This document shows, piece after piece, positions 6,897-44,471 of a stretch of DNA of 64,000 nucleotides. The position numbers and the translations under genes are program-made. Below the pieces are notes generated by a model that saw nothing but the letters and a program-made list of their open reading frames with translations, ran no database searches and was not told the DNA's origin. Origin of the DNA: Candidatus Bathyarchaeota archaeon (lineage in GTDB: Archaea > Thermoproteota > Bathyarchaeia > Bathyarchaeales > Bathyarchaeaceae); contig JAUWDY010000001.1 of assembly GCA_030608565.1 (NCBI GenBank), forward strand, positions 104,238 through 168,237. Direction: 5' to 3'. Each line of letters begins with the position of its first letter. Position 1 is the first letter of the stretch.

Positions 6897-6899
6897 ATT

Positions 6900-8000: not shown

Positions 8001-8008
8001 CTAATAGT

Positions 8009-8067
8009 AAGAACTCAAGATTCGTCCCAAATGGGGCATGTGGGTTCGAATCCCAGCCGTCGCGCCA
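8009..8067 (+). pseudogene. orphan tRNA-Leu-like 3' fragment (anticodon loop to CCA), no 5' acceptor strand
   Basis: Contains loop CTCAAGA (8014-8020), a CCC-AAAT-GGG variable-arm hairpin, TGGG-TTCGAAT-CCCA, then CCGTCGC-G-CCA. No complementary 5' strand (GCGACGG) was found in about 700 nt upstream. Confidence 0.4.
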
Positions 8068-8079
8068 TAAAATAATGTC

Positions 8080-8805: not shown

Positions 8806-8808
8806 AGA

Positions 8809-9207
8809 CTACTTCGCTCCTTTTATGGAATCTAGCCAAACCCCGCGTCCCGTCAGAATCTCGAAGTCTGGGCTCCCGCATTTGGGGCATTTCAGGTATG
8901 TGTGAGCAATTTCTGGGACAAAATGAATGAACTCTGACACGTCGTGATCCATGTTCTTCGTGCTAAACTTCCATTTGTGATTACAAACTCTGCACTTTAA
9001 CTCAGCCTTTACAGTTTCCAAACTAAATTTGGCGTTTTTGAGCATGGGAGACCGAAGTTGAGACAAAGCGAACTCGAATATTTCTTGGTCTATCTGCTGT
9101 AGTTCACCGATTTTGATTTTGAGTTCAATGACCTCTTTTAGTTCCTTTTCTTCCGCTATTTTAAGGGTAGTAGAGATCACTGCTTCCGCTAAAGCCCATT
9201 CATGCAT
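8809..9207 (-). CDS. hypA: hydrogenase nickel-insertion protein HypA
   Basis: N-terminal MHEWALAEAV and zinc site CRVC...CPKCGS. Confidence 0.9.
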   Translation of the reverse strand: MHEWALAEAVISTTLKIAEEKELKEVIELKIKIGELQQIDQEIFEFALSQLRSPMLKNAKFSLETVKAELKCRVCNHKWKFSTKNMDHDVSEFIHFVPEIAHTYLKCPKCGSPDFEILTGRGVWLDSIKGAK

Positions 9208-9289
9208 AGTGAGCCTACAGACTAGTTATGTATTAAAATGTTGTTGAGTTGTTGCCACACGAGATTACAAGAAAGAAGAGGCTTGGATA

Positions 9290-18361: not shown

Positions 18362-20450
18362 AGGTCATTAAGAAGTTTCCAAACCCATCTACTCTGGCCT
18401 TCCAGTTAGGATAGACAACTGTGGTAGCATCGTATTGCTCTATTACTGCTGGGCCACAGATCATATTTCCCGGCTTGAGTTTCTCTCTGACATACACGGG
18501 ACATTTCACATAATCTTTGTATTTCTCAAAGAACACATTCCGCGTAGTCAAAAGAGCCTCTGCAGGCGGCTCCCGCTCACATAGTTTTTGCTTCATCAAT
18601 TTAGGCTTCATCACGATGCCGACTGCGACAAGCCTAGCATTCACCAACTCGACATTTTCTTCTCTTACTGCATACCCATAGACGGCCTTATGTTTGCTAT
18701 GAAACCTTTCTATGACACTGTCAAATTCTTCTTTGGTTAATGGAGCAAGCACTGGAATGGTAAGCTCGTACCCTTGGCCAAAGTACCTCATGTCCAACTG
18801 TCGCAGAAACGTCATGTTGTCAGGTTTGATTCTCTGCGATTCCATTATTTTCATGCCTTCGGCTTGCAGTTTCCTAAACGTCGCTTTAATATCGCTTAGT
18901 TGAACATCTTTCACTGTTTTCATGATGGCTTTTACAAGGCTATAGGTGAAATCGGCTGTGAGGAGTCCAAGCGCTGAAAACAGGCCTGGATTAGTTGGTA
19001 CAATAATGCTGGATATGTGTAATTCTTCAGCGAGGGCGCAAGCGTGCATTGGACCGGCTCCACCAAAGGAGTTTAATGTGAATTGTCTCGGGTCGTGGCC
19101 ACGCTCCACCGAAACGATTCTTAGAATCTTAGCCATGGTTGAGTTTACTATTCTTATTATACCTGCAGCGGCATCAGCTAATTCGAAACCGGTTTTCTCA
19201 CAGATTTCTTTATCAATGAATTTTTGAGACAACTCTGGGAATGCTTTCATTCTTCCTCCAAGCATATAGTTGGGGTTAAGCCTTCCAAGAATTAGGTTAG
19301 CGTCGGTTACGGTGGGTTTCTCTCCGCCTTTTCCGTAGCAGGCTGGACCAGGATCAGCTCCTGCGCTTAGTGGGCCGACTCTTAAGGCTCCGCCTGTGTC
19401 AACCCAAGCGATTGTTCCTCCTCCGGCGCTGCACTCTGCTAGGTCTATGAAGGGGAATCTTACGGGGTATCCGCTTCCTTTCACAATTCTTCCGCTGTGG
19501 ACTTTGCCAGCCACTTCGTACTCTGTCACAACTTCTGGGATTCCGCCTTGTACGATTCCTGCCTTAGCGGTGGTTCCGCCCATGTCGAAGCTTACTATGT
19601 TCTTGATTTTGAGCATTTTTCCGTAGAAGGATGATGCTATGACGCCGGCTGCTGGGCCAGATTCAACCATGCTTACCGGTTTTTCAATAATCACATTTTT
19701 AGAAGCTATACCGCCACTGGACTGCATCACGCAAAGTGGACTGGAAACGCCTAGTTTTTGAGTTCTATCAGATAAATCGTTCATATAGACTGACACGATT
19801 GGCATTAGGCACGCGTTCACTACTGTCGTGCTTGTTCTCTCGAACTCGCGGTATTCAGGTGCAATTTCAGAGGAGCATGTTACAAAAATCTGTGGGCATG
19901 CCTCTTGAAGCATATTCTTGATTTCTTGCTCGTGCTTCGGGTTCATGTAAGAGTGAAGCAACGCGATTGCTACAGCTTTGATTTTCTCACGTTTCAACTC
20001 AACTGTAAGGGTCTGTGCATTCTCGGTGTTTAACGGCTCTAACACTTCACCTTCCGGCCCAATTCTTTCATTAACTTCGTACCTAAGCTTTCTGGGCATA
20101 AGCATCCGAGGCCTTTGAACGAAAAGGTTGTATAACTCATGCCTCCTCTGCCGACCTATTTCTAAAACGTCTCTAAATCCCTTCGTTGTGATCAACGCAG
20201 CTTTTGGGAGTTCAAGACCAAGCTGCCCAAGCAATGCATTTACTGCTATTGTTGTGGCATGCGTTATTGTGGAAATTTTTTCGGGTTCAACTCCTTTGAG
20301 AAACTGTTTAAAAACCTCGATAACCGCGTCTGCAGGCTTTTTTGGAGTTGAGGACTCCTTGAAATTCATTAGCTTACCGGTTTGTTCGTTCAGTGCAACT
20401 AAGTCTGTGAATGTACCTCCAATGTCTACACTGACTCTGTATTCTGGCAA
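18333..20450 (-). CDS. hydantoinase A / oxoprolinase family protein
   Basis: 705 aa. The N-terminus [13 protein letters not shown] is typical of HyuA. Confidence 0.9.
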
Positions 20451-20549
20451 GCTTTTTCGTAACTCCCATATTGCCTTGGCGGCAACAACTCATAAATTTT
20501 AGATAAGTTTAGAAGGAAATTTTTTTCAATCGAAGAGACTGCGTTTTTG

Positions 20550-21578
20550 TCAGCCGAAATATTTTCTCATGTCCTCAAGCGCGGCTGATGGAACAGGTAA
20601 ATCCTTCATGGTCACCAAGCCTGGCGCTGCATTCATCACCTTGGGAATGGAGTTTACGATTATCGCTACGGTTCCTGAGTCGCCGTGTATGCATGGTGTT
20701 ATTTTCTCGTGGACGTTTGGCACTCCTTTGATAGTGATAGCATCGTATTCTTCTTTTGCGCCTATGTACGCTTGAAAATCGAGTGAGATGACTTCTTTCT
20801 CTTCCTTTATGCCTCTTGCACATTGTTTTAGGCCAGCTACTTGACCGGGTTCCACTTTAACTGCCTCGCTTTCCACATGTGTCTTAGCTATCACCGGCTC
20901 CACGGGGTCTACCTCTATCTTGTCAAGTTTCCATTTTAAGGCGTTGGCTATCATGGCTATAGATTGTGTAAGTCCGACATGTCCCGTGATGGTTTTCTTT
21001 TCTATTCTTTCTTTGAATTCGTTGACGGTGAGTCCTGCTCCTATTTTCTTTTGGAATGGAGCCCTCCGCGTGGCAGCGTTCATTATTCTAGTTGCCTTGA
21101 TTTGCTCGATTTCTTGGCATACGCTAGTGAGTGTGATGACGATGGTGTCCATGAGGAAACCGGGGTTTATGCCCGTACCTAAGACGGTTACGCTGTGTTC
21201 TCTTGCTAGTTTGTCAAGTTTTTCTGCTATTTCCGGTTCCGTGGCGTATGGATACGAAAGTTCTTCGCATGTGGATATCACGTTTGCTCCATGTTTTATG
21301 GCTGCTGCTATCTGTGAGTATGTTTGTTTGAGGAATGATGTAGTTGAGTGAATTACTACGTCAGCATTAGCCTTAGAAAGCACACCGTCAGGGTTATTGG
21401 ATACCGTGATTCCTAACCGTTTGCCGATGTCTAAAACGTCTCCTAGGTCTTTTCCAACCTTCTCTTTGGCAACATCGATGGCACCAACGATTTCTACTCC
21501 TTTCTTCTTTAGTAGGAGTTTGGCTATGCGGCTTCCCATGGCGCCGACACCGTATAGAACTATTCTCACGTTTTCCAT
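20550..21578 (-). CDS. DapB-like NAD(P)-dependent amine dehydrogenase family protein
   Basis: N-terminal Rossmann motif RIVLYGVGAMGSRI. 342 aa, with the architecture of the DapB-like amine dehydrogenase family. Confidence 0.6.
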   Translation of the reverse strand: MENVRIVLYGVGAMGSRIAKLLLKKKGVEIVGAIDVAKEKVGKDLGDVLDIGKRLGITVSNNPDGVLSKANADVVIHSTTSFLKQTYSQIAAAIKHGANVISTCEELSYPYATEPEIAEKLDKLAREHSVTVLGTGINPGFLMDTIVITLTSVCQEIEQIKATRIMNAATRRAPFQKKIGAGLTVNEFKERIEKKTITGHVGLTQSIAMIANALKWKLDKIEVDPVEPVIAKTHVESEAVKVEPGQVAGLKQCARGIKEEKEVISLDFQAYIGAKEEYDAITIKGVPNVHEKITPCIHGDSGTVAIIVNSIPKVMNAAPGLVTMKDLPVPSAALEDMRKYFG

Positions 21579-21700
21579 GGCTCAATCCTTCTTTTGTTAT
21601 GCGTAGCGTTTTACTCTGATATAGGTGTATTCTGTGTGTGCACGCATAAATATGTCAGATTTCATTTATGATTAGAAACTTTAAGGATTAAACGGGATGG

Positions 21701-22984
21701 TTGATGCGGCGTTCAGAATTATACTCAGCGAGCGTTATAGTACTATCAATAACCTCCATGGTCGAGAACATCGCAGGCGCCCTACCTATATCCTACTTCC
21801 CCTATTACGCAACCTCCTTAGGGGCTGAAATCTGGTTTATAGGAGTGTTCATAGCCGCCTTCATGGTTACAAGCGCATTTCTCTCTTCCCCGTTTGGAAG
21901 CCTCTCTGATCGAGCTGGCAGGAAGAAACTCATTCAAGCTGGACTACTAGCAGATGTTTTCCTAGGCATATTAACAGGTTTAGTTCCGAATTGGCAGACA
22001 CTCCTCATCATCAGAGCCCTAAACGGGGTAGCTACAGCAGCAGTTCGACCCGCAGCAGAAGCTTCCTTAATCGACCAAGTTCCAAAAAGACGAAAAGGCG
22101 AAGCCCTAGGATTCTTCCTAACCCTAACCATGGTAGGATGGTTCATAGGCCCCATCTTCGGTGGAACCATTCAATTCCTTTCAGAGACCACTTTAGGATT
22201 AACTTTAGAAAATAGTTACAGAATCCCATATTTTATAGATTCCTTGTTATCCGTAATCGCCATAGGATTAGTGACATGGAAGGTCAAAGAGACAAGAGGA
22301 AAAAAATCTGACTTGAAAAGAACAGAGGCCGAGGAAGAAGACGACTTCAAGCTTACTGGATGGATTCTACGTTCCATAAGAGTCCTGTACGTTACAACCC
22401 TGACTAACGGCTTCGCAGTAGGCTTCATCGCCCCAGTGGGCGTCCTCTTCCTAGCCGAGGTCTTCGGAGCCATAACCTTCCAGATCGGAGCAATCCTATC
22501 CATATCAGGGTTTGTAGGAATAGCATGCAATTTCTTCGCGGGCAAACTAGCCGATAAGTGGGGAAGAAAGCCAGTGATAACCATTGGAAGTCTATCATCC
22601 AGACTCGGATCGATAGCACTACCATTCGCCTCGAATCTTTGGCAAGCGACAGGAGTTATGGCGTTTAGATCCTTAGGGATAAACGTAAGCATGCCCGCGG
22701 GAAGAGCATTAAGAGCAGACCTTGCCCCTGCAAAAATAAGGGGAAAATTATTCGGAAGGTTCACTGCATTCTTCGACGTAGGCATGATTGCAGGAGTCCT
22801 CATAGGACCATGGCTCTTCCAGACGTTCCAATTCCAAGAATTTAGGATCGAATGGCTTGGAGGCCTGATAGTTAAAGGAGCAGGACTCCCATTTTTCCTA
22901 AGTGGAATAATAGGATTAATAGCTTTAGCACTTCTACTTGCCTTTGTTGAAGAACCGCAGAGAAAAGAAAAAGAAGATCGATAA
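21701..22984 (+). CDS. MFS transporter
   Basis: 427 aa, multi-TM. Loop motifs GSLSDRAGRKK and GKLADKWGRKP. Confidence 0.8.
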   Translation: MMRRSELYSASVIVLSITSMVENIAGALPISYFPYYATSLGAEIWFIGVFIAAFMVTSAFLSSPFGSLSDRAGRKKLIQAGLLADVFLGILTGLVPNWQTLLIIRALNGVATAAVRPAAEASLIDQVPKRRKGEALGFFLTLTMVGWFIGPIFGGTIQFLSETTLGLTLENSYRIPYFIDSLLSVIAIGLVTWKVKETRGKKSDLKRTEAEEEDDFKLTGWILRSIRVLYVTTLTNGFAVGFIAPVGVLFLAEVFGAITFQIGAILSISGFVGIACNFFAGKLADKWGRKPVITIGSLSSRLGSIALPFASNLWQATGVMAFRSLGINVSMPAGRALRADLAPAKIRGKLFGRFTAFFDVGMIAGVLIGPWLFQTFQFQEFRIEWLGGLIVKGAGLPFFLSGIIGLIALALLLAFVEEPQRKEKEDR

Positions 22985-23270
22985 TTATTGAAAATCAAAA
23001 CAGACAACGCACGCATTTCAATCATCCAGTTCATTGGTTTTGGTGCTCAAATTCGTTCAAAAACAATCATTTATTCACCATCGCAAAGGAGTCCACCATT
23101 GAAAACAAAGAATACCACAACACCGGTATTTTTCAGTTGAGGAGATTCAACGAATCAAGATCTACAAAGAAACAGCTTAAAACCAAAAAACCTTTCTCCC
23201 TCAGCTCTACAGCAACTCTATTCTACGTCGTCTATCCTCCACTCTCAAAACAGAGCCCTCCCAAAAAAAC

Positions 23271-23387
23271 CACGTAATCAAAGTGTGAACAGAGTTTTCA
23301 CTAGGCTTAGAAACAAAACACAACCTAAAAGTAACCCTGACACAAGCCATGATCCCCCCTAGGTAGGGGGGTCTATAAAGAGAGAGA
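23271..23387 (-). repeat. 117-bp repeat, copy A (inverted relative to copy B at 31603..31719)
   Basis: The hand-aligned reverse complement matches copy B over 117 nt with roughly a dozen differences. Contains TTTATAGA, then the C6-TACCTA-G6 palindrome, then a conserved segment of about 80 nt. Confidence 0.85.
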
Positions 23388-23407
23388 ATAAGAAACTGCA
23401 AAAAATT

Positions 23408-23447
23408 AGGGGGGGGCTATAGGGGGGTCTAATAAGAGAGAGACACC
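23408..23447 (-). repeat. partial third copy of the repeat's inner end
   Basis: The reverse complement GTGTCTCTCTCTTATTAGACCCCCC matches the start of copy B (31600-31623) nearly perfectly. It then diverges to CTATAG-C8. Confidence 0.7.
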
Positions 23448-23505
23448 CACAAATAACCTAACAAGCAAAAACGTTCAATTCTACTATTCACAAAACACCA
23501 ACAGA

Positions 23506-23985
23506 TCAAGCCATCCGCTTAATAAGATCGTTAATAACTTCACCCCTATACCCAGTAACTCCACCAGCAGCATAACTCTTTTTCACCTTACCTTTGAAAC
23601 CTTTCTTTGGCGGATGAAGACGAAACAGAGGCTTAACACCAGAAAGACTACTATACTCAACCTTCAACGCATAAATAGCCTCAGCCAAATCATCAATTGA
23701 TTCATAACCAATCCCTTGAACATACTGTTCAGTCAACTTCTTATTACCAACAAGCTTCCCTCTTTTCCTCAAAAGAAGCGCAACACCCTCTCTAGAAACC
23801 TCACCCCAAACCAAGTAATCCTTCGCTTTACGCAGCATACCCAAGTAGGAAGGACGATCATCAATCAATGTAGCATGACAATTCCGAGTTAGATGAAGCA
23901 TCTGAAGCGTTTCATCAATTTCTCGAAAAACGCCACTCAGCCCACGAACCCGAATAACCGCTAAACACTTCCGTTTCTCCTTCAT
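23506..23985 (-). CDS. rpl30: 50S ribosomal protein L30 (uL30)
   Basis: Translation LAVIRVRGLSGV... matches uL30. It holds the last position of the conserved spc-type order. Confidence 0.9.
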   Translation of the reverse strand: MKEKRKCLAVIRVRGLSGVFREIDETLQMLHLTRNCHATLIDDRPSYLGMLRKAKDYLVWGEVSREGVALLLRKRGKLVGNKKLTEQYVQGIGYESIDDLAEAIYALKVEYSSLSGVKPLFRLHPPKKGFKGKVKKSYAAGGVTGYRGEVINDLIKRMA

Positions 23986-24618
23986 TTACCCCACCCAATC
24001 ACTCGGCATGACGAGAGTATACGTTTTCCGAAGAGCCTCAAACACAGCATAAGCAAAGGAAGGAACAGTCTTAGTAGAACCATAGCTCCGCGTCCAACAA
24101 TCCTTAACCCCAGCAAGCCCCAAAATAACCTTAGCCGCTTCATTCGCAACAACACCTAAACCACGAGGACCCGGAATCAACACAACCTCCACTCCACCAC
24201 ACTTAGCTCGAACCCGAAACGGCAAAGAATGCGGTTTCCCACACCCACATTCCCAGCTTCCACAACCTCGACGAATAAGAGTAACGTTAAGACGCGCATC
24301 CACCGCGCCTCTCTCAATAGCATTACGCACCTGCTTCGCCTTTCCTGAACCTAAACCCACATAGCCATCGCGGTTTCCAACAGCCACAATCGCCTTAAAT
24401 CGAGATTTCTCTCCAGCATCAGTTTGCTTTTGCACCAAATTTATGTCAATAACTTCTTCTTGCAGATCTGGAAGAAGAACATCCACTATTTCCGGTTCAC
24501 GTATTTTCAGCCCTTCCATAAACACTTCTTCAATAGAAGAGATATGGCCTTCAAGAATCATTTTCCCCAGCCTTGTACGAGGCTTCCACCCCGCCACCTT
24601 TTCCTCCGTGGATCTCAT
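23986..24618 (-). CDS. rps5: 30S ribosomal protein S5 (uS5)
   Basis: 210 aa. The uS5 pattern (VAVGNRDGYVGLGSGKA) and gene order. Confidence 0.95.
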   Translation of the reverse strand: MRSTEEKVAGWKPRTRLGKMILEGHISSIEEVFMEGLKIREPEIVDVLLPDLQEEVIDINLVQKQTDAGEKSRFKAIVAVGNRDGYVGLGSGKAKQVRNAIERGAVDARLNVTLIRRGCGSWECGCGKPHSLPFRVRAKCGGVEVVLIPGPRGLGVVANEAAKVILGLAGVKDCWTRSYGSTKTVPSFAYAVFEALRKTYTLVMPSDWVG

Positions 24619-25217
24619 GCTTTTTCCTCCTTAAATGAAGAAACAATTTTCTCCTTCGTCAAAGAAAAATGTTCAGAAAGTTGTTCAGGACGCAAACCCT
24701 TTGACAACTGTTTAGAAAACAATTTCTGATAGGCATCCAAGTTTGAAGATAATTGATTTGCATAATCGACAACATGCTCCCCACATATTCTTTTTCCGTC
24801 CGGCAGCATCTTTTCATCATGTGGAACCATCATACCAGCGTCAAGAACCCCCTTTAACACAGCAAAAACTCGCGAGCCTCGGGAAGGACACTGCAAACCT
24901 ATATCCAAAACAGCCTTTTTCACGCCATGGACAATTGCTCTGCAACCGCACAAAAGCCCAGTCAAATAAGCCGCTGGAACGTTTTTGCAACTGCCTTGCC
25001 ATCCATAAGTTTTCATCAGTTCGCAGGAGTGAGCAGACGCAATGACCACATCGCCACTTGTCTTGGCTTCAATGACTTGGGCGATAGTATGCTTTAACGT
25101 CCCGCGAGCTATTAATCGAGGCAACCTAGACAAAACAAGAGCTCTTCTTGAATGATAGTCAGTTTTTCCTTCTCTCCGTCTGCGGAAGGGTACACGATAG
25201 CTGGGTCCTGTGGCCAT
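24615..25217 (-). CDS. rpl18: 50S ribosomal protein L18 (uL18)
   Basis: N-terminal YRVPFRRRREGKTDY is typical of archaeal uL18. Confidence 0.95.
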   Translation of the reverse strand: MATGPSYRVPFRRRREGKTDYHSRRALVLSRLPRLIARGTLKHTIAQVIEAKTSGDVVIASAHSCELMKTYGWQGSCKNVPAAYLTGLLCGCRAIVHGVKKAVLDIGLQCPSRGSRVFAVLKGVLDAGMMVPHDEKMLPDGKRICGEHVVDYANQLSSNLDAYQKLFSKQLSKGLRPEQLSEHFSLTKEKIVSSFKEEKA

Positions 25218-25669
25218 TACTGTTTCCTCCCTAAACCACGGGTTTTGATGTGACGTTCCAAGTCTGCTGTTGACTCAAATACTCCACTTCCAGCTTTGTT
25301 GTAGAGTTTACGATAAACGCTTTTCGTGATCACACGGCTTGTTTTCAGTTCACGCAACTTTTTTCGCAACGCTCGGATTTTTTTCATCCACCTTCGCTTC
25401 TTAGAAATCCTTGCATGAGTCGACCCACTTTTTCGACCTGGGCCCCTCCTTAATCCTTTCTTTTTCTTTTCATGCAAAACCCGTGCACGAGCACGACTAA
25501 TACCCTTTTTGGGTCGAGGTTGAATGATCTCTTCATGGATTAGCCTTCTGATTTCCTGCCTAGTAATTGCTGCCTCAACATCCTCTATTCGATCAGGGTC
25601 TATCCAAACTCGCCCCTCACCAACATTGAGAAGCTCGGCAGCTAATCGGCGTTGACTTCTAAGACTCAA
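25217..25669 (-). CDS. rpl19e: 50S ribosomal protein L19e
   Basis: [20 protein letters not shown] is typical of eL19. Confidence 0.95.
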
Positions 25670-26154
25670 TTCTTTTCGCTCCGTTTATGCTGTTCAGCCT
25701 TCTCCTCTTTTTTCTCCTTCTCTTCTTCCTCGACTTCTTCAAGTTCTTTCATTTCTCTGGGATTTAGAATGTGAATTCCTCGTTCCTCGGCTCTGGCAGA
25801 GATTTCAACTCGTTTTCTCGCTCCCACAGTGCGAGCAATTCTGATGGCTTGCGTTTTAGGATCAACTTTTTCAACATCATCTACGTTATATACTAAAGCC
25901 TCTGCATATCCCGATGGGTGAAGACCTCTAGTTTTCTTTGGACCACGATAACCAACTTCCACGGATCGGGGCCAGCCCTTTACCTTCTTCCGCATTTTAC
26001 TGTCTATGCCACGTGGTCTCCGCCAACTTTCTTCTACTCTCTTGTATCGCCAACTTTCTTGTCGCCTAAAATCGGGTTTCTTATCTTTAATGCGTTCTCG
26101 CTTTCTTAAAGCTCGCTCTTTGGCGAACGTCTCTGGTTTTTTCTCGCTTTTCAT
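25666..26154 (-). CDS. rpl32e: 50S ribosomal protein L32e
   Basis: [13 protein letters not shown] and [15 protein letters not shown] are typical of eL32. Lys/Glu-rich terminal extensions. Confidence 0.9.
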
Positions 26155-26699
26155 TCTTTCATCCCCTCATGCCGCTCGTAAGTGTAGATGCCGTCAAGGA
26201 ACACCCGGGGGTCTTTTTTCTTAATTTTGGTTGCTCTTTCGATGTTTGCAGCGGTTTGGCTGACATCCTCGATGTTGATTCCTTGTACAGTTACGTCATC
26301 GCCCTTTGGCATAACCTTGGCGTCACCCATTATTTTGGCTATGCGTGGGCTTCGTTCCCCTGTAAAGTTTTCGATAGTCACTGTTTTTTCTCTAACTTTG
26401 ACAGATATTGGGAAGTGTGAGAACACGATTTTGAGTTTGTAAGTAAATCCCTTAGTCACCCCTATCATCATGTTTTGAATATGAGAGCAGATCGTTCCCA
26501 CGAGAGCTGCTTCTCTTTTGCGAGGCCAGCTCGCTCGAATCTTTATCAAATCTTCTTCTAATTGAACAGATACGGAGGCATGAGAAAAGTCTCGCGTTAG
26601 TGTTCCCTTTTCACCCTTAACCATTACAACTCTTCCCTCTACTTTAACGTCCACCTCTTCAGGAATTTCGATCGATCTAACCGCCTCAATGACGCGCAT
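26151..26699 (-). CDS. rpl6: 50S ribosomal protein L6 (uL6)
   Basis: 182 aa, with the uL6 two-domain pattern and the expected gene order. Confidence 0.95.
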
Positions 26700-26710
26700 T
26701 CACAGTTCCC

Positions 26711-27103
26711 CTAATAGATAAAAGCAAGGAGTCTCCCCCCGATTTTTTCCTTCTTAACCTTCCGATGAGCCAGCACTCCCTTGGAAGTGGAAACCACGAG
26801 AACACCGATGTCTCTGGATGGGAGAAAACGTTTCTCCCAAGTTTCAAATTCATTTGATCTCACAGGAAAACGGGGTTTTACGGCGCCGCATTTGTTTATA
26901 CGACCAAGAAGCTGTATCTTGAACTTTCCGGAACGCCCGTCCTCCACAAATTCAAATTCGCCGATATACCCATTCAGTTGCATAATCCTCAAAACGCGCC
27001 CCAAGAGCTTAGAGGCTGGACTAATTATGCATTCACGCTTATTTCGCATCTCATTGTTCATAATGGTCGTCAACCCATTAGCAAGAGTATCTACAGGTGT
27101 CAA
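26711..27103 (-). CDS. rps8: 30S ribosomal protein S8 (uS8)
   Basis: DTLANGLTTIMNNE and the C-terminal GGRLLAFIY. Confidence 0.95.
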   Translation of the reverse strand: MTPVDTLANGLTTIMNNEMRNKRECIISPASKLLGRVLRIMQLNGYIGEFEFVEDGRSGKFKIQLLGRINKCGAVKPRFPVRSNEFETWEKRFLPSRDIGVLVVSTSKGVLAHRKVKKEKIGGRLLAFIY

Positions 27104-27117
27104 TTTTCCAGCGCCTC

Positions 27118-27282
27118 CTACTCATACTTTTTGAACCCAAGTTTTTCAGCGACCTCTCTAAAACATTGGCGACATAAATACAGTCCATGCCGACGAATGA
27201 TTGCTCCATAGGAGCCACATCGTCTGCATGGGCGGCTACCCTTACCGTATTTTCGCTCTTTTTTTGGCTTCTGTTTTCCCAT
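27118..27282 (-). CDS. rps14: 30S ribosomal protein S14 type Z (uS14), not in ORF track
   Basis: Manual translation: [54 protein letters not shown] (54 aa, CxxC...CxxC). The track ORF 27078..27350 is in the wrong frame. Confidence 0.9.
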
Positions 27283-27297
27283 CCGAGTGCCCTCAGC

Positions 27298-27879
27298 TTA
27301 TACGATTTCAACTCCAAATTCATCTTTAATAAATAGCATCGCATCATCAAGTGTCAATAAGTGGTCTAGTCCAACTTTAGATCGAGCACGATGCCTCCGT
27401 TTAACGCGATATCCGGGTCTACCAAGAGTAACTGAAACATCCATGCCATATATGCCGAGTTCTGGCACGTATTTGGTGCCAGGTATCTCTATATGTTCCT
27501 TAATGCCGAAAGAAAAGTTTCCGTGACGGTCAAAACAGTCCTTTGAAAGTTTATTATCAACAGTATGAAAAGCTTTCTGAAGAAAATTCTTCGCTTTTTC
27601 CTTCCGAAGAGTCACAACACAAGCGATCGGTTCTCCTTTTCTGATACCAAAATCCCGTATTGTTTTCTTGGCCTTCCGCTTACAAGGCGTTTGTTCAGTC
27701 AGTTTCTCAAGAACCTTTGATGCCTTTTCAAGAGGCTCTCCAGACTTTCCGACAGAAATATTGACGGTTACTTTTTCAATTTTGGATTTAAGCATCGGAT
27801 CTTCACGCCATCTCTTGCGAATTTCTTCTTCTGACAAATCAATTATCCTCCGGCAAAGATATCCACGGCCGGGTATCAC
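27298..27879 (-). CDS. rpl5: 50S ribosomal protein L5 (uL5)
   Basis: IEKVTVNISVGKSG and YGMDVSVTL match the uL5 pattern. The annotated start overlaps S4e by 41 nt, so the true start may be internal. Confidence 0.9.
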   Translation of the reverse strand: MIPGRGYLCRRIIDLSEEEIRKRWREDPMLKSKIEKVTVNISVGKSGEPLEKASKVLEKLTEQTPCKRKAKKTIRDFGIRKGEPIACVVTLRKEKAKNFLQKAFHTVDNKLSKDCFDRHGNFSFGIKEHIEIPGTKYVPELGIYGMDVSVTLGRPGYRVKRRHRARSKVGLDHLLTLDDAMLFIKDEFGVEIV

Positions 27880-28597
27880 CAGTAGCGAAAATGAAATTAA
27901 GAGTTGTTTGGAAGCGATTTCCGTTTTCGTCTTCGATAGTAACCAGCGAGCCTCTGCGTTTTTGGCCTGAGCGCTTTTCTACGGTAACGATCTTGCCGTA
28001 TTTACCCACGTTTTTTCCTCCAATAATAATTGCGTGCATGTCTTTACCTAGCTTCAGGTGTGCAGTAATTTCTTGACTAGGGACACTTGTTTTCAAAACA
28101 TCTAATGTTTGATAGACATCTTTTTCAGGTTTTTGGGGGTCTTCCACTTGAACCTGTATGTTTCTTCCATCATGAAGATTAAGCTGCATATGTCCGCCTT
28201 TGATGACAGTTTTGTTTTCGATTCTACAGAGTTTGAATAGTGCCTCCTCGGGTCCAATGGAATGAAGAAACAACCCTTTTTCAGAGGGTAAAATTCGATA
28301 CGTTTTTTTCATCTCAGGTATGGAAATGACGTCCATTAGGCCTGTTGGAAAAAGTTCCTCCAGTTGTAATTTTCCGTTGACTTCTATCTTTCCTTGGGAA
28401 ATTATCGTTTTTGCTTCTTTTCGTGTTTTTGCGAATCCAAGAATATCACGGACAATAAGTGCAAGTGGCATGCAACGTGAAGTTGGGTGAGGCCCCGGCT
28501 TAGGTCTAACTACCCAAACGAATTCTTTTCGATGGATGGGCCAAAATTTTGGAGCTGGTTTTCGTTTTAAGTGTTTTTTTCCGCCTTTTTTCCCCAA
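27839..28597 (-). CDS. rps4e: 30S ribosomal protein S4e
   Basis: MGKKGGKKHLKRKPAPKFWPIHRKE is typical of eS4. Confidence 0.95.
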   Translation of the reverse strand: MGKKGGKKHLKRKPAPKFWPIHRKEFVWVVRPKPGPHPTSRCMPLALIVRDILGFAKTRKEAKTIISQGKIEVNGKLQLEELFPTGLMDVISIPEMKKTYRILPSEKGLFLHSIGPEEALFKLCRIENKTVIKGGHMQLNLHDGRNIQVQVEDPQKPEKDVYQTLDVLKTSVPSQEITAHLKLGKDMHAIIIGGKNVGKYGKIVTVEKRSGQKRRGSLVTIEDENGNRFQTTLNFIFATGDTRPWISLPEDN

Positions 28598-28598
28598 T

Positions 28599-29081
28599 TT
28601 ACGTTCCTCTGGTTTTTGCCGTAGTTTTGCGAGTTCCCTTTTTCTTTCTTTTCTGCTGGGCTTTCGCAGGTTTTAGCTCTGTTTCTTCCGCGGCCGTCTC
28701 TTTTGGTAACTCTATTTTTTCGCCGACGCCTTTTCGTTTCAGTGCTTCTCTGCGCCACTTGTCATCAAGATTCAGACGGGTAATTCTCACCTTAGACGGA
28801 TGAATAGGGATGGGCATTGAAGTTCCGTCTACTTTCTCCCGTGTTACTCCTTCAACAAAGATTCTATACTTCGTTCGGTTAACTCCGGTGACTTTCCCTT
28901 CAAATCCCTTGCGGTCTCCCCTCATAATATGAACAGTGTCGCCCATTCTCACCGGAATCGAGTTGGTGTTGTGGGACGTTTTTAGCTTCGATGAAAGAGC
29001 AGCAGAGAATTGTTTGTATCGTTTATGCAGAGGAGCTTGATACAATCTTTTGTGCTGTTTTCTAGGTTTTGTTGTTTTCAC
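28599..29081 (-). CDS. rpl24: 50S ribosomal protein L24 (uL24) with Lys-rich C-terminal extension
   Basis: KOW motif GDTVHIMRGDRKGFEGKV. The C-terminal 40 aa are basic and low-complexity. Confidence 0.9.
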   Translation of the reverse strand: MKTTKPRKQHKRLYQAPLHKRYKQFSAALSSKLKTSHNTNSIPVRMGDTVHIMRGDRKGFEGKVTGVNRTKYRIFVEGVTREKVDGTSMPIPIHPSKVRITRLNLDDKWRREALKRKGVGEKIELPKETAAEETELKPAKAQQKRKKKGTRKTTAKTRGT

Positions 29082-29094
29082 TTCTTCCAGCTTC

Positions 29095-29535
29095 CTACAC
29101 GATGATGCTTGCGGCGCTTGCTATTCTCGGCCATCGCTCAGCCGCTTCCTTCGCCACTGGGCCTCGGATCTCCGAGCCGCGCATTTCTCCTTCGGGGGTC
29201 ATTATAACAGCTGCGTTGTCTTCGAATTGAACCCAGACTCCGTCGGCACGTCTGTATGGTTTTCTCTGTCGAACTAAGACTGCATGAAATATTTTCTTTC
29301 TCATATCAGGTGTTCCTTTTCTCACTGAGACAACAACCCTATCTCCAACGGCTGCTGCGGGAACACGTCTTAATCGACCATGGTAACCCATTACTTGAAT
29401 TACTCTGAGTTTTCTGGCCCCGCTGTTATCAGTACATTTGACAATAGAACCAGCTAACAAGCCTGTTGAAATTTTTGGTCTCTGACCAATCATTCCTCTG
29501 GCTAGGAAAGCACGCGATTTGGCTCTTGCCGCCAT
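29095..29535 (-). CDS. rpl14: 50S ribosomal protein L14 (uL14)
   Basis: [15 protein letters not shown] and the overall uL14 pattern. Confidence 0.95.
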
Positions 29536-29536
29536 T

Positions 29537-29857
29537 TCATTTTCCCTCCAGCTTTTCGACTACCACAAAGGAAACGGTTTTGCTTATGGAGCGGCATTCA
29601 GCTATCTTCACTAGATTTCCTTCTTTCACGTTTATGCATGGAGGGTTATGGGCAGGAATGTGACTGTGCCTCCGTTCATAACGTCTGAATTTTGGCACGT
29701 AATTTAAGTAGTCACGTCGCACGACAATGGTTTTGTCCATCTTGGCGCTGATGACAACACCTTCCAATGTGTGCCCTCTGATCGAGAGGGTTCCATGAAA
29801 AGGACAGTTTGGGTCGTTGCAGGTTTTTTTTGGTTTTTTTGTGGAACGGGTTGTCAT
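29537..29857 (-). CDS. rps17: 30S ribosomal protein S17 (uS17)
   Basis: [16 protein letters not shown]...KTIVV matches the uS17 pattern. Confidence 0.95.
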
Positions 29858-30139
29858 TTACCAACGCCTCCTGATTCGCTTCTTGATTCGATTTTCGGGT
29901 CGTCCAACGATAATCTTTCCATCTATCTCTATAACTGTTCCGTCGGGCATGGTGAAATGAAAGACAGCCATGTTCTTGATAATTATTGTTTTCTTGTTGT
30001 TATGTAGTATTACCAACGTGTTTCGAGTCTCGTTGAGTACTTTGCCTTTTATGCCCACGTAGCTAGAATGTAGGCTTCTTACAACCTCAGCGTTAAGCCC
30101 GATAAACTCGTGTTGAAGTGTGGTGGGTGTGATTTTCAT
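29858..30139 (-). CDS. rnp1: RNase P protein component 1 (Rpp29/Pop4)
   Basis: 93 aa. The motif EFIGLNAEVV...GIKGKVLNETRNTLVI is typical. Sits at the conserved position between L29 and S17. Confidence 0.85.
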   Translation of the reverse strand: MKITPTTLQHEFIGLNAEVVRSLHSSYVGIKGKVLNETRNTLVILHNNKKTIIIKNMAVFHFTMPDGTVIEIDGKIIVGRPENRIKKRIRRRW

Positions 30140-30354
30140 TTTTTCTTCTTCTCCACCTGTATTTCTTCGTTTTCAACTGTGAGAATGCGCGCGATTGTTT
30201 TGCGGAGTTCTCGTATCCGAGAAGGGTTGTCAAGAGAACCTCCTGCTTTGACCATTGTTTTCAATCTGACGAGTTCGGTTCGCAGTTCAATGATCTTTTT
30301 TTTGCGGTCCTCAGAAGACATTGTTCGGATGTCTTTCATCCTTATGATCGGCAT
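30136..30354 (-). CDS. rpl29: 50S ribosomal protein L29 (uL29)
   Basis: 72 aa, uL29 helical pattern (RKKKIIELRTELVRLK). Order conserved. Confidence 0.9.
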   Translation of the reverse strand: MPIIRMKDIRTMSSEDRKKKIIELRTELVRLKTMVKAGGSLDNPSRIRELRKTIARILTVENEEIQVEKKKK

Positions 30355-30355
30355 G

Positions 30356-31006
30356 TTATTCTTCAGCCTCCGCGGTTTCTTTTTCAGTCTTCTTCATCGC
30401 CTCTTCTGTGGGTTTTTCAATAATTTGCACTTGGTCTGGAAACCTTGCGTCTGGGGGCATGATTTGCACTCTGACTCCAAGAATGCCTGGTTTTAATTGA
30501 ACGGGTAATACTGCTTTTCGCATGTATTTTCTTGCAGCGTCTCCGCTTTTAGGTAGGTATCCTGAGCGAAACTTTTCGTATCGAGAGCGGTCTGTTCTTA
30601 GTTTTCCGCTTATAACAATCTCTACGCCTAGTGCTCCTGCTTCCATGATTTGGTTTAATGCCCAGAAGCCTGCTCTTCGAAAGTGTACGCCGCGTTTTAG
30701 GGCTGAGGTGATGCGGGATGCTACGATGCGTGCGTTGAGTTCTGGGATTTCGATTTCGGCTACGGAGATTTGTGGGTTGGGCATTTTGAATTTTTCTTCT
30801 AGTGTTTTTGCGAGGTTCTTTATGGTTTCTCCGCCTCTTCCGATGACTAGTCCGGGGCGCATTGTGTAGATTACTACGTGTGTGCCTAGTGGGGTGTTTG
30901 TGATGTCTACGCCGCCGTATCCTGCTCTTTCGAATTCTTGTTGTAGGAATTCGTCGATTTCTGTTTTTTTTATGGCTTCGGTTATGAAGTGTTTGACTGT
31001 TGACGT
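30356..31006 (-). CDS. rps3: 30S ribosomal protein S3 (uS3); start codon non-canonical (ACG proposed)
   Basis: The track ORF starts at the internal Met (30862). The conserved uS3 N-terminus (TVKHFITEAIKKTEIDEFLQQEFERAGYGGVDITNTPLGTHVVIYT) continues in frame upstream to a TAG at 31033-31031, with no ATG/GTG/TTG. AGGAGG lies 9 nt upstream of the ACG at 31006-31004. Confidence 0.8.
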   Translation of the reverse strand, partial: TSTVKHFITEAIKKTEIDEFLQQEFERAGYGGVDITNTPLGTHVVIYTMRPGLVIGRGGETIKNLAKTLEEKFKMPNPQISVAEIEIPELNARIVASRITSALKRGVHFRRAGFWALNQIMEAGALGVEIVISGKLRTDRSRYEKFRSGYLPKSGDAARKYMRKAVLPVQLKPGILGVRVQIMPPDARFPDQVQIIEKPTEEAMKKTEKETAEAEE

Positions 31007-31007
31007 T

Positions 31008-31481
31008 TTATGCTTCCTCCTTTGTTTGCTCTAGGATTAGTTCGACGTGGCAGAGTGTTTCGAAGTGTGGTGTCATTCGTCCGAAGGCTCTTGGTCTGTA
31101 TCTTTTGATTTTCATTCCTGGGTAGGCTGATGCGTGTATTATTCGTAGGTTTTCTGTGTCTAGTCCTTTGAATTCGGCGTTTGTTTCGGCTTCTTCCAGT
31201 TTTTTCAGGATTTTTTGTGCGGCTTTTTGAGGGTATTTGCCTGCGGCTATTTTTTGTAGTCCGCGTCTGTGTGGTTGTTTCTTTTTGTGTTTGCGGAATG
31301 GTACGGGTTTTTCTATTTTGATGACTTGTTGAAGGTAGGTTTTTGCCTGATCAAGCTTCATTCCTTTTATCGTCGTGCATATTTCTGTTGCGTGTTTTGG
31401 GGATACTCTAATTTCGCGTGCGCTGGCTTTCGCTGTTTTTTCTGGGTCTATGTCCGTTTTTGAGTATCCCCAATGTGGCAT
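31008..31481 (-). CDS. rpl22: 50S ribosomal protein L22 (uL22)
   Basis: 157 aa. KASAREIRVSPKHATEICTTIKGM matches the uL22 pattern. Confidence 0.95.
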   Translation of the reverse strand: MPHWGYSKTDIDPEKTAKASAREIRVSPKHATEICTTIKGMKLDQAKTYLQQVIKIEKPVPFRKHKKKQPHRRGLQKIAAGKYPQKAAQKILKKLEEAETNAEFKGLDTENLRIIHASAYPGMKIKRYRPRAFGRMTPHFETLCHVELILEQTKEEA

Positions 31482-31535
31482 TTTGTCTGTCTTTCCTTCT
31501 TTTTGTTAATGTGCTGAATCAACTGGGGTTGCGTT

Positions 31536-31557
31536 GTTTATATGCTTTATTATTTCC
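31536..31557 (-). promoter_or_regulatory. promoter-like AT-rich boxes upstream of L22 (GGAAATAATAAAGCATATAAAC on minus strand)
   Basis: Lies about 55-75 nt upstream of the L22 ATG. Shares the GAAATAA element with the regions upstream of S13, rpoD and rpoN. Confidence 0.4.
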
Positions 31558-31602
31558 GTGGTGTTTTTGAAGAGTGGCTTTTTGTTATGTTATTTGCGCG
31601 TG

Positions 31603-31719
31603 TCTCTCTCTTATTAGACCCCCTACCTAGGGGGGGGTCATGGCTTGTGTCAGGGTTACTTTTAGGTTGTGTTTTGTTTCTAAGTCTAGTGAAAACTCTG
31701 TTTACGCTTTGATTGTGTG
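31603..31719 (+). repeat. 117-bp repeat, copy B (inverted relative to copy A at 23271..23387)
   Basis: TCTCTCTCTTATTAGA-C5-TACCTA-G8-TCATGGCTTGTGTCAGGGTTACTTTTAGGTTGTGTTTTGTTTCTAAGTCTAGTGAAAACTCTGTTTACGCTTTGATTGTGTG, aligned by hand to the reverse complement of copy A. Confidence 0.85.
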
Positions 31720-31900
31720 AGAACTGAATGTTGTTTGTTGTTGATGCTATGAGCGTTATGAATGTGTTAGAACGTCGGATGACGCGGTGAAGAGCTTCAG
31801 TTGTCTGTTCTGTCTACGAAATACTTATTTGTATTAGTTTTGTGTGTGTGCTTATTCTAGACCTGGTCTCTGAGAGCTCTAGATACGCCAACGACAAATA

Positions 31901-31972
31901 CTGAGGTTGGGTTTGAACCCACACAATTCCGATGACAGGGAATTAGATCAGTTAAGTGACAGTTTTCTAACC
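31901..31972 (-). other. degenerate tRNA-Asp-like remnant / hairpin cluster
   Basis: The minus strand has AATTCC-CTGTCATC-GGAATT (a GTC anticodon in an 8-nt loop) and TGGG-TTCAAA-CCCA (6-nt loop). There is a second CTGTCAC and no acceptor pairing. Confidence 0.25.
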
Positions 31973-32002
31973 AAAAACAAACACATGGTTGTAACTGTAG
32001 GC

Positions 32003-32710
32003 TCATCGTACGGGCACCCAAACCTTCGAAACGTTCTTTCCACGTATAACAAAAGAGAGATAGTTGGCAAGCCATATGCCGACAACCCTGAAAAGTCCAA
32101 GTTTTCGAAACCGCCTTAACGACTCGTACACGGTTAGGTCCTTAATAAACACGAATCTTCCTCTTTTTGAGAGTCGAAACGCAAGTTCATGGTCCTCAGT
32201 GCACGGTAGACTTTCGTCAAATCCGTTGACTTTGAAAAACTCGCTTCTTCTGGCTACAAAAAATTCTCCACGGCAGTGAGGTTTGAACCTAGCCAAGATT
32301 CGGGTAAGAGAGTTATGAAGGTGAAAGAAAACTTTTTCATGAAATCTTGGTTTTACGGGCATAATGGAACATGTGGCACCTACAACCGTAGAGTCACTAA
32401 ACGTTTCCAGCACCTTTTCCACGAAATCAGCGGTGGTAATCACGTCTGCATCAAGGAAAACAAGAACGTCTCCGCATGCTCGTTTGGCCCCATAATTTCT
32501 TGCCCTAGCTATCCCTCGTTCTCGCAGTACGTACACCTTATTCGTGAAGCGTCTTGCAACTTCAACGGTTTTATCTTCGCTTCCTCCGTCAACCACTATG
32601 ATCTCGATGAGATGATCTATGTTAACCAGCCTAGACAATGTTGTGGCTATGTATTTTCCCTCTTGAAAAGCGGGAATGACCACCGAGACAGTTCGAACTT
32701 TTGTTTTCAC
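32003..32710 (-). CDS. glycosyltransferase family 2
   Basis: VSVVIPAFQE..., DGGSEDKT and the DxD motif (FLDADV). Confidence 0.85.
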   Translation of the reverse strand: MKTKVRTVSVVIPAFQEGKYIATTLSRLVNIDHLIEIIVVDGGSEDKTVEVARRFTNKVYVLRERGIARARNYGAKRACGDVLVFLDADVITTADFVEKVLETFSDSTVVGATCSIMPVKPRFHEKVFFHLHNSLTRILARFKPHCRGEFFVARRSEFFKVNGFDESLPCTEDHELAFRLSKRGRFVFIKDLTVYESLRRFRKLGLFRVVGIWLANYLSFVIRGKNVSKVWVPVR

Positions 32711-38229: not shown

Positions 38230-39633
38230 TTACAGTAACATTTTTAGCTCATCGATGGCCTGCAAAGCTCGTTTTCCACGCTTGGTAATTTTGAAGTATT
38301 TTCTTCTCTCCCTTTTATAGGCAATCACCAACCCTCTTTCTGAGAGTTCGTTTAGGTGCTGATAGACAGCGGCTCGTGTCATTGTTTTTCCAAGTTTTTT
38401 CCATAGGTCATAGCCGTAAGTGTCTTTTCTGCTGAGAATGCGCAGAATCTTTTCTTTTGTGCTTAATTCTAGGCCGACTACAGCGGTTTTGCGTTTTTTC
38501 GTCAGGGCCTGTAGTACATCGGTTGCTTTCAAACCGCTTGCGGTTATGAGACATACAACGCTGTCTTTCTTGTTGATAGTACCTTGAGCAACCATTTTTT
38601 CGAGCGCGGCTATTGTAGCTGAGCTCGCTGGCTCTGCAAAGATTCCTTCAAGCCTTGCGATTTTTTGTTCAGCGGTGAAGATTTCGGAATCGCTGACTGA
38701 GACAGCGATACCTTTCGATTCTGTTAGCGCCTTCAGTGCCCATATTCCGTTAAACGGGTTGCGCACAAGGATTCCTAAGGCGTGTGTGGACGGCTTATGA
38801 ACAACAGTTGGTTTTGATTTGCTTTTCAGGTGTGCATTGACTATGGGTGCGCATCCGTGAGCTTGTACGCCGACCATCTTCGGTAGCGTTTCAATCCTCC
38901 CGAGCATTTGCAGTTCTTTGAAGCCCTTCCAAATGGAGTATATAATTCCACCGCTCCCCATAGAAACGACGAACCAGTCGGGTACTCCAAATTGTTCCGC
39001 AACTTCGTATGCTACAGTTTTCTGGGCTTCAATTACGAGGGGGTTCAATTCAGCCGTGGCTTGATACCAACCTGTCTCTGCCGCCAATGACTCTGCCCGT
39101 TCTATGGAGTCGTCAACAATTTCACCGTATTCGTCAAGGATAGCATCGTAGATCAGCATTTGAGCCAGCTTACCCATGTCAACCAGTTTGGGAACAATAA
39201 TGTGACACGTGAGTCCAGACTTTGCGCAGTAAGCAGCCGAAGAGGCTCCTAGGTTCCCGTTCGAAGCACAAACCATAGAATTATGCTTCAAATCTAAAGC
39301 GTTGGAAACCATTAACGCGGCGCATCTGTCTCTAAAGGAATTCGTGGGGTTTCGTGTTTCATCCTTAAGATACACTGCACTCAAACCAAGCTTTTTGCTA
39401 AGACGCGTAGCTTTATGTAGGGGGGTGCCACCTTCGCCCAGTGTCACGGTGTTTTTGACTTCTGGAAGAAGTCGTTTGTATTTCCAAAAAGAGAGGGCAC
39501 CATCGAGCTTGATTCCTCTTAACTGTTCGAAATCAAGAGCATACTCCAAGAGGCCTCCGCACTTTTCGCATTTATATCGTGGAGGATACGGCTTCAGAGT
39601 TGCTGAACACTGGGTGCATCGCAAAATCGTCAT
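38230..39633 (-). CDS. threonine synthase-like PLP enzyme with N-terminal zinc ribbon and C-terminal PadR-type winged HTH
   Basis: N-terminus CTQCSATL...CEKCGG. ThrC-like fold-type II PLP core (TNSFRDRCA). The last 70 aa or so, ILRILSRKDTYGYDLWKKLG...AVYQHLNELSERGLVIAYKRERRKYFKITKRGKRAL, match the PadR pattern. Confidence 0.75.
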   Translation of the reverse strand: MTILRCTQCSATLKPYPPRYKCEKCGGLLEYALDFEQLRGIKLDGALSFWKYKRLLPEVKNTVTLGEGGTPLHKATRLSKKLGLSAVYLKDETRNPTNSFRDRCAALMVSNALDLKHNSMVCASNGNLGASSAAYCAKSGLTCHIIVPKLVDMGKLAQMLIYDAILDEYGEIVDDSIERAESLAAETGWYQATAELNPLVIEAQKTVAYEVAEQFGVPDWFVVSMGSGGIIYSIWKGFKELQMLGRIETLPKMVGVQAHGCAPIVNAHLKSKSKPTVVHKPSTHALGILVRNPFNGIWALKALTESKGIAVSVSDSEIFTAEQKIARLEGIFAEPASSATIAALEKMVAQGTINKKDSVVCLITASGLKATDVLQALTKKRKTAVVGLELSTKEKILRILSRKDTYGYDLWKKLGKTMTRAAVYQHLNELSERGLVIAYKRERRKYFKITKRGKRALQAIDELKMLL

Positions 39634-44325: not shown

Positions 44326-44471
44326 GCCGGGGTGTCCTAGAGCAACGCGTCAAATGCGGGAAATCAGGTAGGGAGCAGATTCAACCTGAAAAGAAGCTCA
44401 CGCCTGGAGTTCGATTAGAAAGCCTGTGGTCCTTTTGGGCCGCGTGGGTTCGAATCCCACCCCCGGCGCCA
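44326..44471 (+). tRNA. tRNA gene (146 nt, CCA encoded) with about 70 nt of intervening sequence; isotype unresolved, class-II/Ser-like features
   Basis: Acceptor GCCGGGG/CCCCGGC, T arm GTGGG-TTCGAAT-CCCAC, G73 and CCA. A GGTCC-TTTT-GGGCC hairpin just 5' of the T arm resembles a long variable arm. No canonical anticodon arm or BHB could be built by hand. Confidence 0.7.

Follow-up and report, generated by a model that had tools for sequence, protein, structure and literature searches.

A ribosomal-protein operon of Bathyarchaeia that lies between short inverted repeats and occurs in two orientations

Why should a complete ribosomal-protein operon stand apart from its usual neighbours, and do the two inverted repeats at its ends have anything to do with its position? 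This question is raised by a stretch of 64,000 nucleotides (hereafter the window) from a Candidatus Bathyarchaeota archaeon (assembly GCA_030608565.1, contig JAUWDY010000001.1, positions 104,238 to 168,237), in which an operon running from the L22 gene to the L30 gene is bracketed by two inverted repeat arms. An earlier note on this DNA, made from the sequence alone, had proposed that the block was moved, or can be flipped, by recombination between the repeats. We consider it likely that the operon occupies a chromosomal segment between two inverted arms, and that recombination between these arms inverted the 8.2-kb unit one or more times as this Bathyarchaeia genus diverged. Below, designations with three digits (such as L018) refer to contigs, and shorter ones to ribosomal proteins.

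A repeat search of the window returned inverted arms at positions 23271-23387 and 31603-31719 (117 nt, 88% complementarity), which establishes by computation the repeat that had been aligned by hand, and a second, collinear inverted pair at 23423-23464 and 31582-31623 (42 nt, 93%). These arms are the only inverted repeats of at least 35 nt in the 64 kb, and the two pairs constitute one repeat, which is interrupted in one arm by an extra 56-nt module. When gaps and weaker homology are included, on the basis of gapped alignment and alignment with relatives, arm A spans 23271-23505 on the plus strand (235 bp) next to an MFS transporter gene and L30, and arm B spans 31556-31719 on the minus strand (164 bp) between a GT2 glycosyltransferase gene and L22. 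Both are non-coding, and the arms share a layout with a unique part of about 80 nt, a palindrome of C/G homopolymers and between one and three modules that point inward. In arm A, the unique left part (23271-23352) precedes the palindrome CCCCCCTAGGTAGGGGGG (23354-23371), two modules and a tail reaching as far as the L30 stop codon. Arm B is arranged in the same way, with its palindrome at 31618-31635, but has a single module, and it extends inward to about 8 nt upstream of the TATA box of L22. The palindrome pattern is matched four times in the window, where shuffles give an expectation of 0.02. A 47-nt stretch of arm A (23306-23352, plus strand) is 100% identical to 31638-31684 on the minus strand in arm B.

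The extra 56-nt module of arm A (23388-23443, plus strand; exact placement ambiguous by one period) consists of a G-run and TCTAATAAGAGAGAGA, and is lacking both from arm B and from arm A of a sister strain of about 98% identity (contig L002). Its tandem relationship is evident from a comparison of 23420-23443 with 23364-23387, which are 92% alike, and Tandem Repeats Finder misses the 56-nt period because just 24 nt per unit are alike. The 'partial third copy' of the repeat that the earlier note placed near 23408-23447 is the second tandem module inside arm A and not a separate copy.

The placement of the arms is precise. The spacing of about 120 bp that had been estimated from L22 and L30 holds on measurement, given that the arm B end of the 117-nt pair lies 122 nt upstream of the L22 ATG (31481) and that the 117-nt part of arm A lies 119 nt from the L30 stop (23506). 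All arms end inwardly with ...CTmTTCA(C)AAAACACCAACAGA, to which either the L30 stop codon or the promoter of L22 is directly adjacent; the arms therefore bracket exactly the interval from the L22 promoter to the L30 stop. Outside the arms, the unique outer flank A (22985-23270, between the MFS stop and arm A) and the unique outer flank B (31720-32002, between arm B and GT2) exhibit no homology to each other (alignment score of 21, versus a shuffle mean of 18.6).

Other assemblies reveal that the block is found in both orientations. The synteny anchors for this comparison are the MFS gene on the left (21704-22984, plus strand), which is accompanied by a DAP-dehydrogenase-like gene, and on the right the first of two minus-strand GT2 genes (32003-32710). 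In the window and its relatives of at least 98% identity, the order is MFS> <L30...L22< <GT2. Look-ups with exact proteins gave contigs of the same species from independent assemblies, among which L001 and L007 run from GT2 through arm B into L22, and L002 runs from L30 through arm A into outer flank A, all of them collinear with the window. Because these independent assemblies reproduce the junctions of the window, its junctions are not the chimeric joins that the earlier note had allowed for. The species occurs in SRR14876854, SRR14876844 and SRR22936146/7 and in the runs that underlie ERZ23498525/622/665 and ERZ23499054.

Three more divergent contigs carry the opposite arrangement. Contig L018 (ENA; MEGAHIT, k141) matches window positions 20486-23261 over its first 2772 nt (86% identity) and then, from 2947 to 3985, matches the window in reverse from 31611 to 30573 (93%), such that the DAP-dehydrogenase-like and MFS genes are followed by L22 and S3. 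The 10-kb JGI contig L026 is built likewise, with 1-4395 corresponding to 18862-23261 and 4595-10036 corresponding to 31582 down to 26145, and it extends the same junction from the DAP-dehydrogenase-like and MFS genes through L22 to L6. These two contigs derive from different samples and assemblers, and yet are 97.8% identical over all of L018 in a single match that includes the junction. At the other end of the block, JGI contig L020 corresponds over 1-2934 to window positions 34528 down to 31603 (94%) and over 2825-4562 to 23276-25015 (96.5%), which gives the order transglutaminase-like gene, GT2, GT2, arm, L30, S5 and L18. Outer flank A is thus common to L018 and L026 up to 23261, and outer flank B is joined to the L30 end in L020. 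The homology switch at the MFS-L22 junction falls between 23261 and 31611/31582, and that at the GT2-L30 junction falls within 31603-31714/23276-23387. As read from these alignments, a single inversion that broke within the arms accounts for both junctions, with L018 and L026 on one side and L020 as the reciprocal on the other, in support of the proposal that recombination between the repeats flipped the block. Furthermore, orientation tracks divergence, in that window-type contigs have at least 98% identity to the window and flipped contigs at most 96.5%. Segregation by lineage fits a fixed difference, not random misjoins, and one historical inversion explains all the data.

Several points weigh against this conclusion. 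The two orientations are documented in separate lineages, and the nearest approach to their coexistence in one population is contig L016, which shares sample ERZ23498665 with the window-type contig L004 and carries GT2 and outer flank B, followed by sequence of the arm-B type as far as the palindrome; beyond it, 27 nt are identical to an arm-A-type module before the sequence diverges, and the contig ends only 40 nt past the palindrome. This contig is explained equally well by the flipped orientation and by the gain of a module in arm B. The GT2-L30 junction is seen in one contig (L020), and the position of the crossover is resolved only to about 75 nt, which include both the identical stretch and the palindrome. 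No unique left part is recognisable in the MFS-side arm of the flipped sister species, and the homology available there may amount to just the palindrome and modules (about 40-100 nt), which is short for RadA-type recombination. Cellular recombination in Thermococcus kodakarensis has been cited as needing at least 500 bp (PMC5495485). Finally, the lack of any transposase, recombinase or integrase domain, which favours our reading, holds for the flanking and unassigned window ORFs (open reading frames) scanned; Pfam covered part of the window ORFs and the rest were judged by eye, and a recombinase may be encoded elsewhere in the genome.

With these caveats, the most likely route is general homologous recombination, in which the arms would cross over within or beside the central identical stretch or the palindrome and thereby invert the whole 8.2-kb segment. 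Pairing between the arms would also drive gene conversion, and thereby keep them similar. The arms carry its expected trace. In the 77-nt unique part, arm A of the window matches its own arm B at 74 of 77 positions and the orthologous arm A of L002 at only 65, even though the DNA around the L002 arm is about 98% identical to the window. Greater similarity to the paralogous than to the orthologous arm is a signature of gene conversion, and the 47-nt identical stretch at 23306-23352 is likely a tract of a recent conversion event. The modules also vary in number, with one in arm A of L002 and in arm B of the window, two in arm A of the window and in L020, and three in L018 and L026, and the homopolymer runs of the palindrome differ in length from contig to contig.

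The consequences of a flip for the operon are expected to be slight. Since the arms enclose the whole unit from promoter through genes to stop, a flip should leave expression unchanged and either orientation should be viable, and we infer that the flip is neutral. Immediately beyond L30, the arm contains terminator-like tracts of T5-T6, and the modules contain TATAAA. As for the direction of the event, the window probably has the derived order and the flipped contigs the ancestral one. If L020 belongs with contigs L021 and L025, which share the left flank of the window (see below), then the flipped order is the ancestral one and a single inversion on the branch of the window species would explain everything. 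What we describe is a known kind of event, namely repeat-mediated inversion with gene conversion, and is mechanistically ordinary rather than a new type of mobile element.

Among the other explanations that we considered, the least improbable, though still doubtful, is that the repeats are a product of the inversion and not its cause. Staggered breaks with fill-in, or template switching during replication, could have duplicated the breakpoint sequence in inverted orientation, with gene conversion acting later. Such an origin would suit the exact fit of the arms around the functional unit of promoter to stop, the unrelated outer flanks, the lack of the repeat in more distant relatives, and the fact that the unique left part is unrecognisable on the MFS-side arm of the flipped species, as if it had been duplicated in the lineage of the window alone. 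However, the palindrome and modules are already present at both the MFS-side (L018 and L026) and GT2-side (L020) ends in flipped contigs. Moreover, 66 of 77 positions are identical between arm A of L002 and the arm-B type, and the 11 differences make the duplication much older than the strain divergence of about 2%. Even if the repeats arose in this way, later repeat-mediated flips would be compatible with it. A somewhat less probable scenario, which we judge to be unlikely, is a programmed and reversible switch, in which a dedicated site-specific recombinase acting at the C/G palindrome or the module cores flips the operon within populations. The arms, with their palindromic core and variable module arrays, would then be the recognition sites of that system. 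If true, this would constitute an 'operon orientation switch' that might, for example, alter replication co-orientation, read-through or antisense transcription into the MFS and GT2 genes. The palindromic core is conserved in every arm, including those of the sister species that lack the unique part, the change from arm-B-type to arm-A-type sequence in L020 and L016 occurs at the palindrome, two configurations of arm B coexist in sample ERZ23498665 (L004 and L016), and archaeal integrases can invert segments with just about 100 bp of homology (PMC5495485). Against this scenario stand the lack of a recombinase among the ORFs scanned, homology-dependent gene conversion outside the palindrome, an orientation that follows lineage and needs one event only, and a promoter that travels with the operon, such that no on/off output is apparent. 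Nor does the locus fit a programmed inverton of the usual kind: no adjacent invertase emerged among the window ORFs scanned, the arms are far longer (164-235 bp) than the repeats of invertons (about 10-40 bp), and the promoter moves with the operon.

An assembly artefact, in which the repeat leads assemblers to join the wrong flanks and no inversion has occurred, would account for the many contigs that end in or beside the arms, and both the 47-nt exact stretch common to the arms and the G/C homopolymers, which are hard to sequence, could promote such errors. We nevertheless regard it as very unlikely, because the junction shared by L018 and L026 recurs across samples and assemblers and lacks a long shared part at which a k=141 contig could misjoin, because the reciprocal junction is present in L020, and because junction type segregates with sequence divergence. 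Least credible of all is the idea that the arms are elements resembling MITEs (miniature inverted-repeat transposable elements) or insertion sequences (ISs) and form a composite transposon that moved the operon. The block is indeed absent from the MFS locus in L021 and L025, where flanks are 93% identical, and this region has therefore been rearranged more than once. However, the point at which these contigs part from the window (23001-23016) is not at arm A but about 260 nt outside it. Moreover, there is no transposase among the ORFs scanned, no terminal inverted repeat within an arm and no target-site duplication, in that the sequence outside arm A (CCCAAAAAAA) differs from that outside arm B (AGAACTGAAT), and no extra copy emerged in any of the searches described next. 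The composite-element-like architecture suggested in the earlier note thus did not stand up within the scope searched, and we rejected a composite transposon or MITE pair on the basis of the missing dispersed copies, transposase and target-site duplication.

These searches covered several scales. Sensitive blastn with 7-nt words found no further full or partial arm copy in the window, and in approximately 300 kb of DNA from the clade all copies of the palindrome, module and unique part are located at block ends and point inward. Two-anchor pattern scans of GTDB representative genomes, JGI metagenomes and IMG/VR yielded no extra copies; JGI returned only the orthologous arm of L020, and the GTDB representatives gave one chance match, in a Crocinitomicaceae metagenome-assembled genome (MAG) without similarity to the window. 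The repeat is therefore not the generic, high-copy intergenic element that had been raised as a way in which the interpretation might fail. Likewise, the arm has no Rfam match, and its predicted folds are unremarkable (z-scores of -1.0 to -2.7) apart from the palindrome hairpin, which alone is robust, with too few variants for a covariation analysis. A gene for a structured non-coding RNA, such as a small RNA, was accordingly set aside.

The enclosed operon is encoded on the minus strand and comprises, in order, L22-S3-L29-Rpp29-S17-L14-L24-S4e-L5-S14-S8-L6-L32e-L19e-L18-S5-L30, as assigned by Pfam, with S14 found by translation. Within the invertible cargo (23506-31481), L22 occupies 31008-31481, S3 occupies 30356-31006 with an apparent ACG start, S14 occupies 27118-27282 and L30 occupies 23506-23985. 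Order and content from L22 to L30 are fully canonical for an archaeal spc-type operon and are the same in relatives L012, L013, L014 and L022. All L22 homologues with a source name are labelled Candidatus Bathyarchaeota or Bathyarchaeia. The window (31510-31548) and all relatives have a motif of the form AAAGCATATAAAC...CCAGTTGATTCAGCACA that precedes the L22 start by 50-60 nt. Its first part, AAAGCATATAAAC (31536-31548, minus strand), resembles a B recognition element (BRE) and TATA box, and its conservation and position suggest that it is the promoter of the L22 operon. Its second part, CCAGTTGATTCAGCACA (31510-31526, minus strand), is a conserved leader element between the TATA box and the L22 ATG. 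Because the motif is part of the invertible segment but not of the repeat, the unit that inverts would consist of exactly the promoter, 17 genes and the stop. We also considered whether the repeat itself serves as the operon promoter, but rejected this, given that the conserved L22 promoter stands between arm B and the ATG.

The start of the S3 gene is unusual. At the position of the true start (31004-31006, minus strand), 1 nt after the L22 stop, there is no ATG, GTG or TTG but an ACG, with GGAGG about 10 nt upstream, and this position is homologous to an ATG start in L014 and to a TTG start in L012 and L013. The 48 conserved in-frame codons after the ACG are dropped by gene callers, which report S3 as 168 amino acids. 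The same ACG is present in L001, L018, L019 and L026. Judged by sequence comparison, the genus appears to start this essential gene at ACG, or by coupled re-initiation.

Pfam-based gene assignment agrees with the earlier description of the neighbourhood as an MFS transporter on one side and GT2 genes on the other, whereas the 'tRNA debris' reported near GT2 was not found by ARAGORN or by an Rfam E-value scan of 31450-32050. A further claim, that the canonical neighbours were lost at points that coincide with the repeats, proved to be correct for one end only. In L012 (a 2.2-Mb JGI contig), L013 and L014, whose L22 proteins are about 75% identical to that of the window, the cluster begins at L22 behind unrelated genes (epimerase, peptidase), and no flanking inverted repeat or arm-like sequence is present. 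Relatives without the repeat thus share the isolated start of the block at the L22 end alone, and the break between S19 and L22 is therefore ancestral to the clade. At the L30 end, L013 and L014 retain L30-(hypotheticals)-HSP20-L15-SecY, and L022 retains L30-HSP20-L15-SecY-Adk-EMC3-Cmk-MFS. From these gene orders, the break between L30 and HSP20-L15-SecY is specific to the lineage of the window and falls at arm A, and here the coincidence stands.

Some further features of these relatives deserve mention. In the spc string of L013, L014 and L022, which is otherwise canonical, a gene for a small heat-shock protein of the HSP20 family has come to lie between L30 and L15, and in L022 an MFS gene lies downstream of Cmk and closes the SecY string. 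Contigs L021 (from the NCBI MAG GCA_030615375.1) and L025 share the left flank of the window at 93% identity up to 23001-23016; outer flank A is absent from them. Past the breakpoint they carry a cluster of isocitrate dehydrogenase, ATP-citrate-lyase and aconitase genes with neither the ribosomal-protein block nor the repeat, and since this breakpoint lies about 260 nt outside arm A it represents a separate event. The MFS 3' flank (22985-23016) is thus a recurrent synteny breakpoint among lineages with flanks of at least 86% identity, in which the right-hand neighbour of MFS is L30 (window), L22 (L018 and L026) or the isocitrate dehydrogenase cluster (L021 and L025).

The window also holds several features away from the operon. 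ARAGORN found no tRNA in the 64 kb, and Rfam found one, which contains an intron (7165-7266). A 146-nt segment at 44326-44471 combines acceptor halves that match (GCCGGGG ... CCCCGGC-G-CCA) with a T-arm and an encoded CCA, and is probably a multi-intron tRNA missed by both programs. An orphan tRNA 3' half (T-arm, acceptor strand and CCA) at 8032-8067, directly after a cupin-domain ORF (7314-8000), has no 5' partner within 180 nt, and could be the remnant of an integration site or half of a split tRNA. A thiamine pyrophosphate (TPP) riboswitch at 6886-6996 (minus strand) scores 58.9 bits, above the Rfam gathering score, and is noteworthy in a Bathyarchaeia genome. Its 3' end overlaps the first 11 nt of a membrane-protein ORF (6381-6896; maximal ORF from the first ATG, GTG or TTG) and it therefore sits at the 5' end of this ORF, whose product we guess to be a thiamine-transporter-like protein. 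At the left edge of the window, a 65-nt direct repeat (560-624 and 1119-1183, 74%) lies in and beside an ORF with a ParB helix-turn-helix domain (608-1516), and may be part of an integrated element. Lastly, a threonine-synthase-like ORF (38230-39633, minus strand) appears, as judged by eye, to have a C-terminal winged-helix-like tail (...YGYDLWKKLGK...YQHLNELSERGLV...).

The arrangement has practical consequences for genome assembly. Among contigs that carry this L22, most terminate in the arms or next to them, at 31556-31740 at one end of the block and at 23417-23503 at the other, and the block therefore typically assembles as an orphan contig of about 8.1-8.3 kb. Two contigs from Logan, L015 and L017, stop inside the 47-nt identical stretch; these assemblies of public sequencing runs presumably use k=31. 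Such orphan contigs carry the majority of the syntenic ribosomal-protein markers on which phylogeny and estimates of MAG completeness rely, and can be mis-binned or lost. The break between S19 and L22, moreover, should be read as a clade-wide feature of these Bathyarchaeia and not as a sign of recent mobility. More generally, the locus is a clean natural example in which an entire essential operon, promoter and stop codon included, is enclosed by short inverted repeats and both orientations are tolerated, and it makes it possible to test to what extent the direction of highly expressed genes is important to an archaeon.

Chromosomal inversions between inverted repeats are known for rRNA operons, IS copies and duplicated genes such as tufA and tufB in Salmonella. 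The locus described here resembles inversions that arise by homologous recombination in having two inverted arms, a segment found in either orientation, breakpoints in the arms and gene conversion of the arms. It departs from them in that the arms are short (164-235 bp) non-coding spacers instead of genes, rRNA operons or ISs, and in that the cargo is a single complete 8.2-kb core operon instead of hundreds of kilobases. Recombination between homologous sequences is regarded as the main route of chromosomal reorganisation, and in Thermococcales inversions over homologies of about 100 bp can be driven by the pTN3 integrase (PMC5495485). Inversions of the pTN3 type are archaeal, as here, but need a tyrosine recombinase from a plasmid or integrated element, and none was seen in the window. 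A 24-kb region of chromosome XIV in Saccharomyces exhibits a flip/flop inversion polymorphism with homogenised inverted repeats (PMC9731477). This region and the inverted-repeat isomers of plastids share with our locus a single-copy segment in two orientations and repeats that are kept alike, whereas their arms are gene-bearing and kilobases long and both of their isomers are documented within species or cells, not between lineages as here. Bacterial invertons (PMC9881135) likewise consist of an invertible segment flanked by inverted repeats, but these repeats are short, an invertase lies nearby and inversion switches a promoter or coding variant, whereas in the present case the arms are long and the promoter moves with the operon. 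Relative to the canonical archaeal S10-spc cluster, the internal order from L22 to L30 is the same, the clade as a whole begins at L22, and the lineage of the window has in addition been cut from HSP20-L15-SecY.

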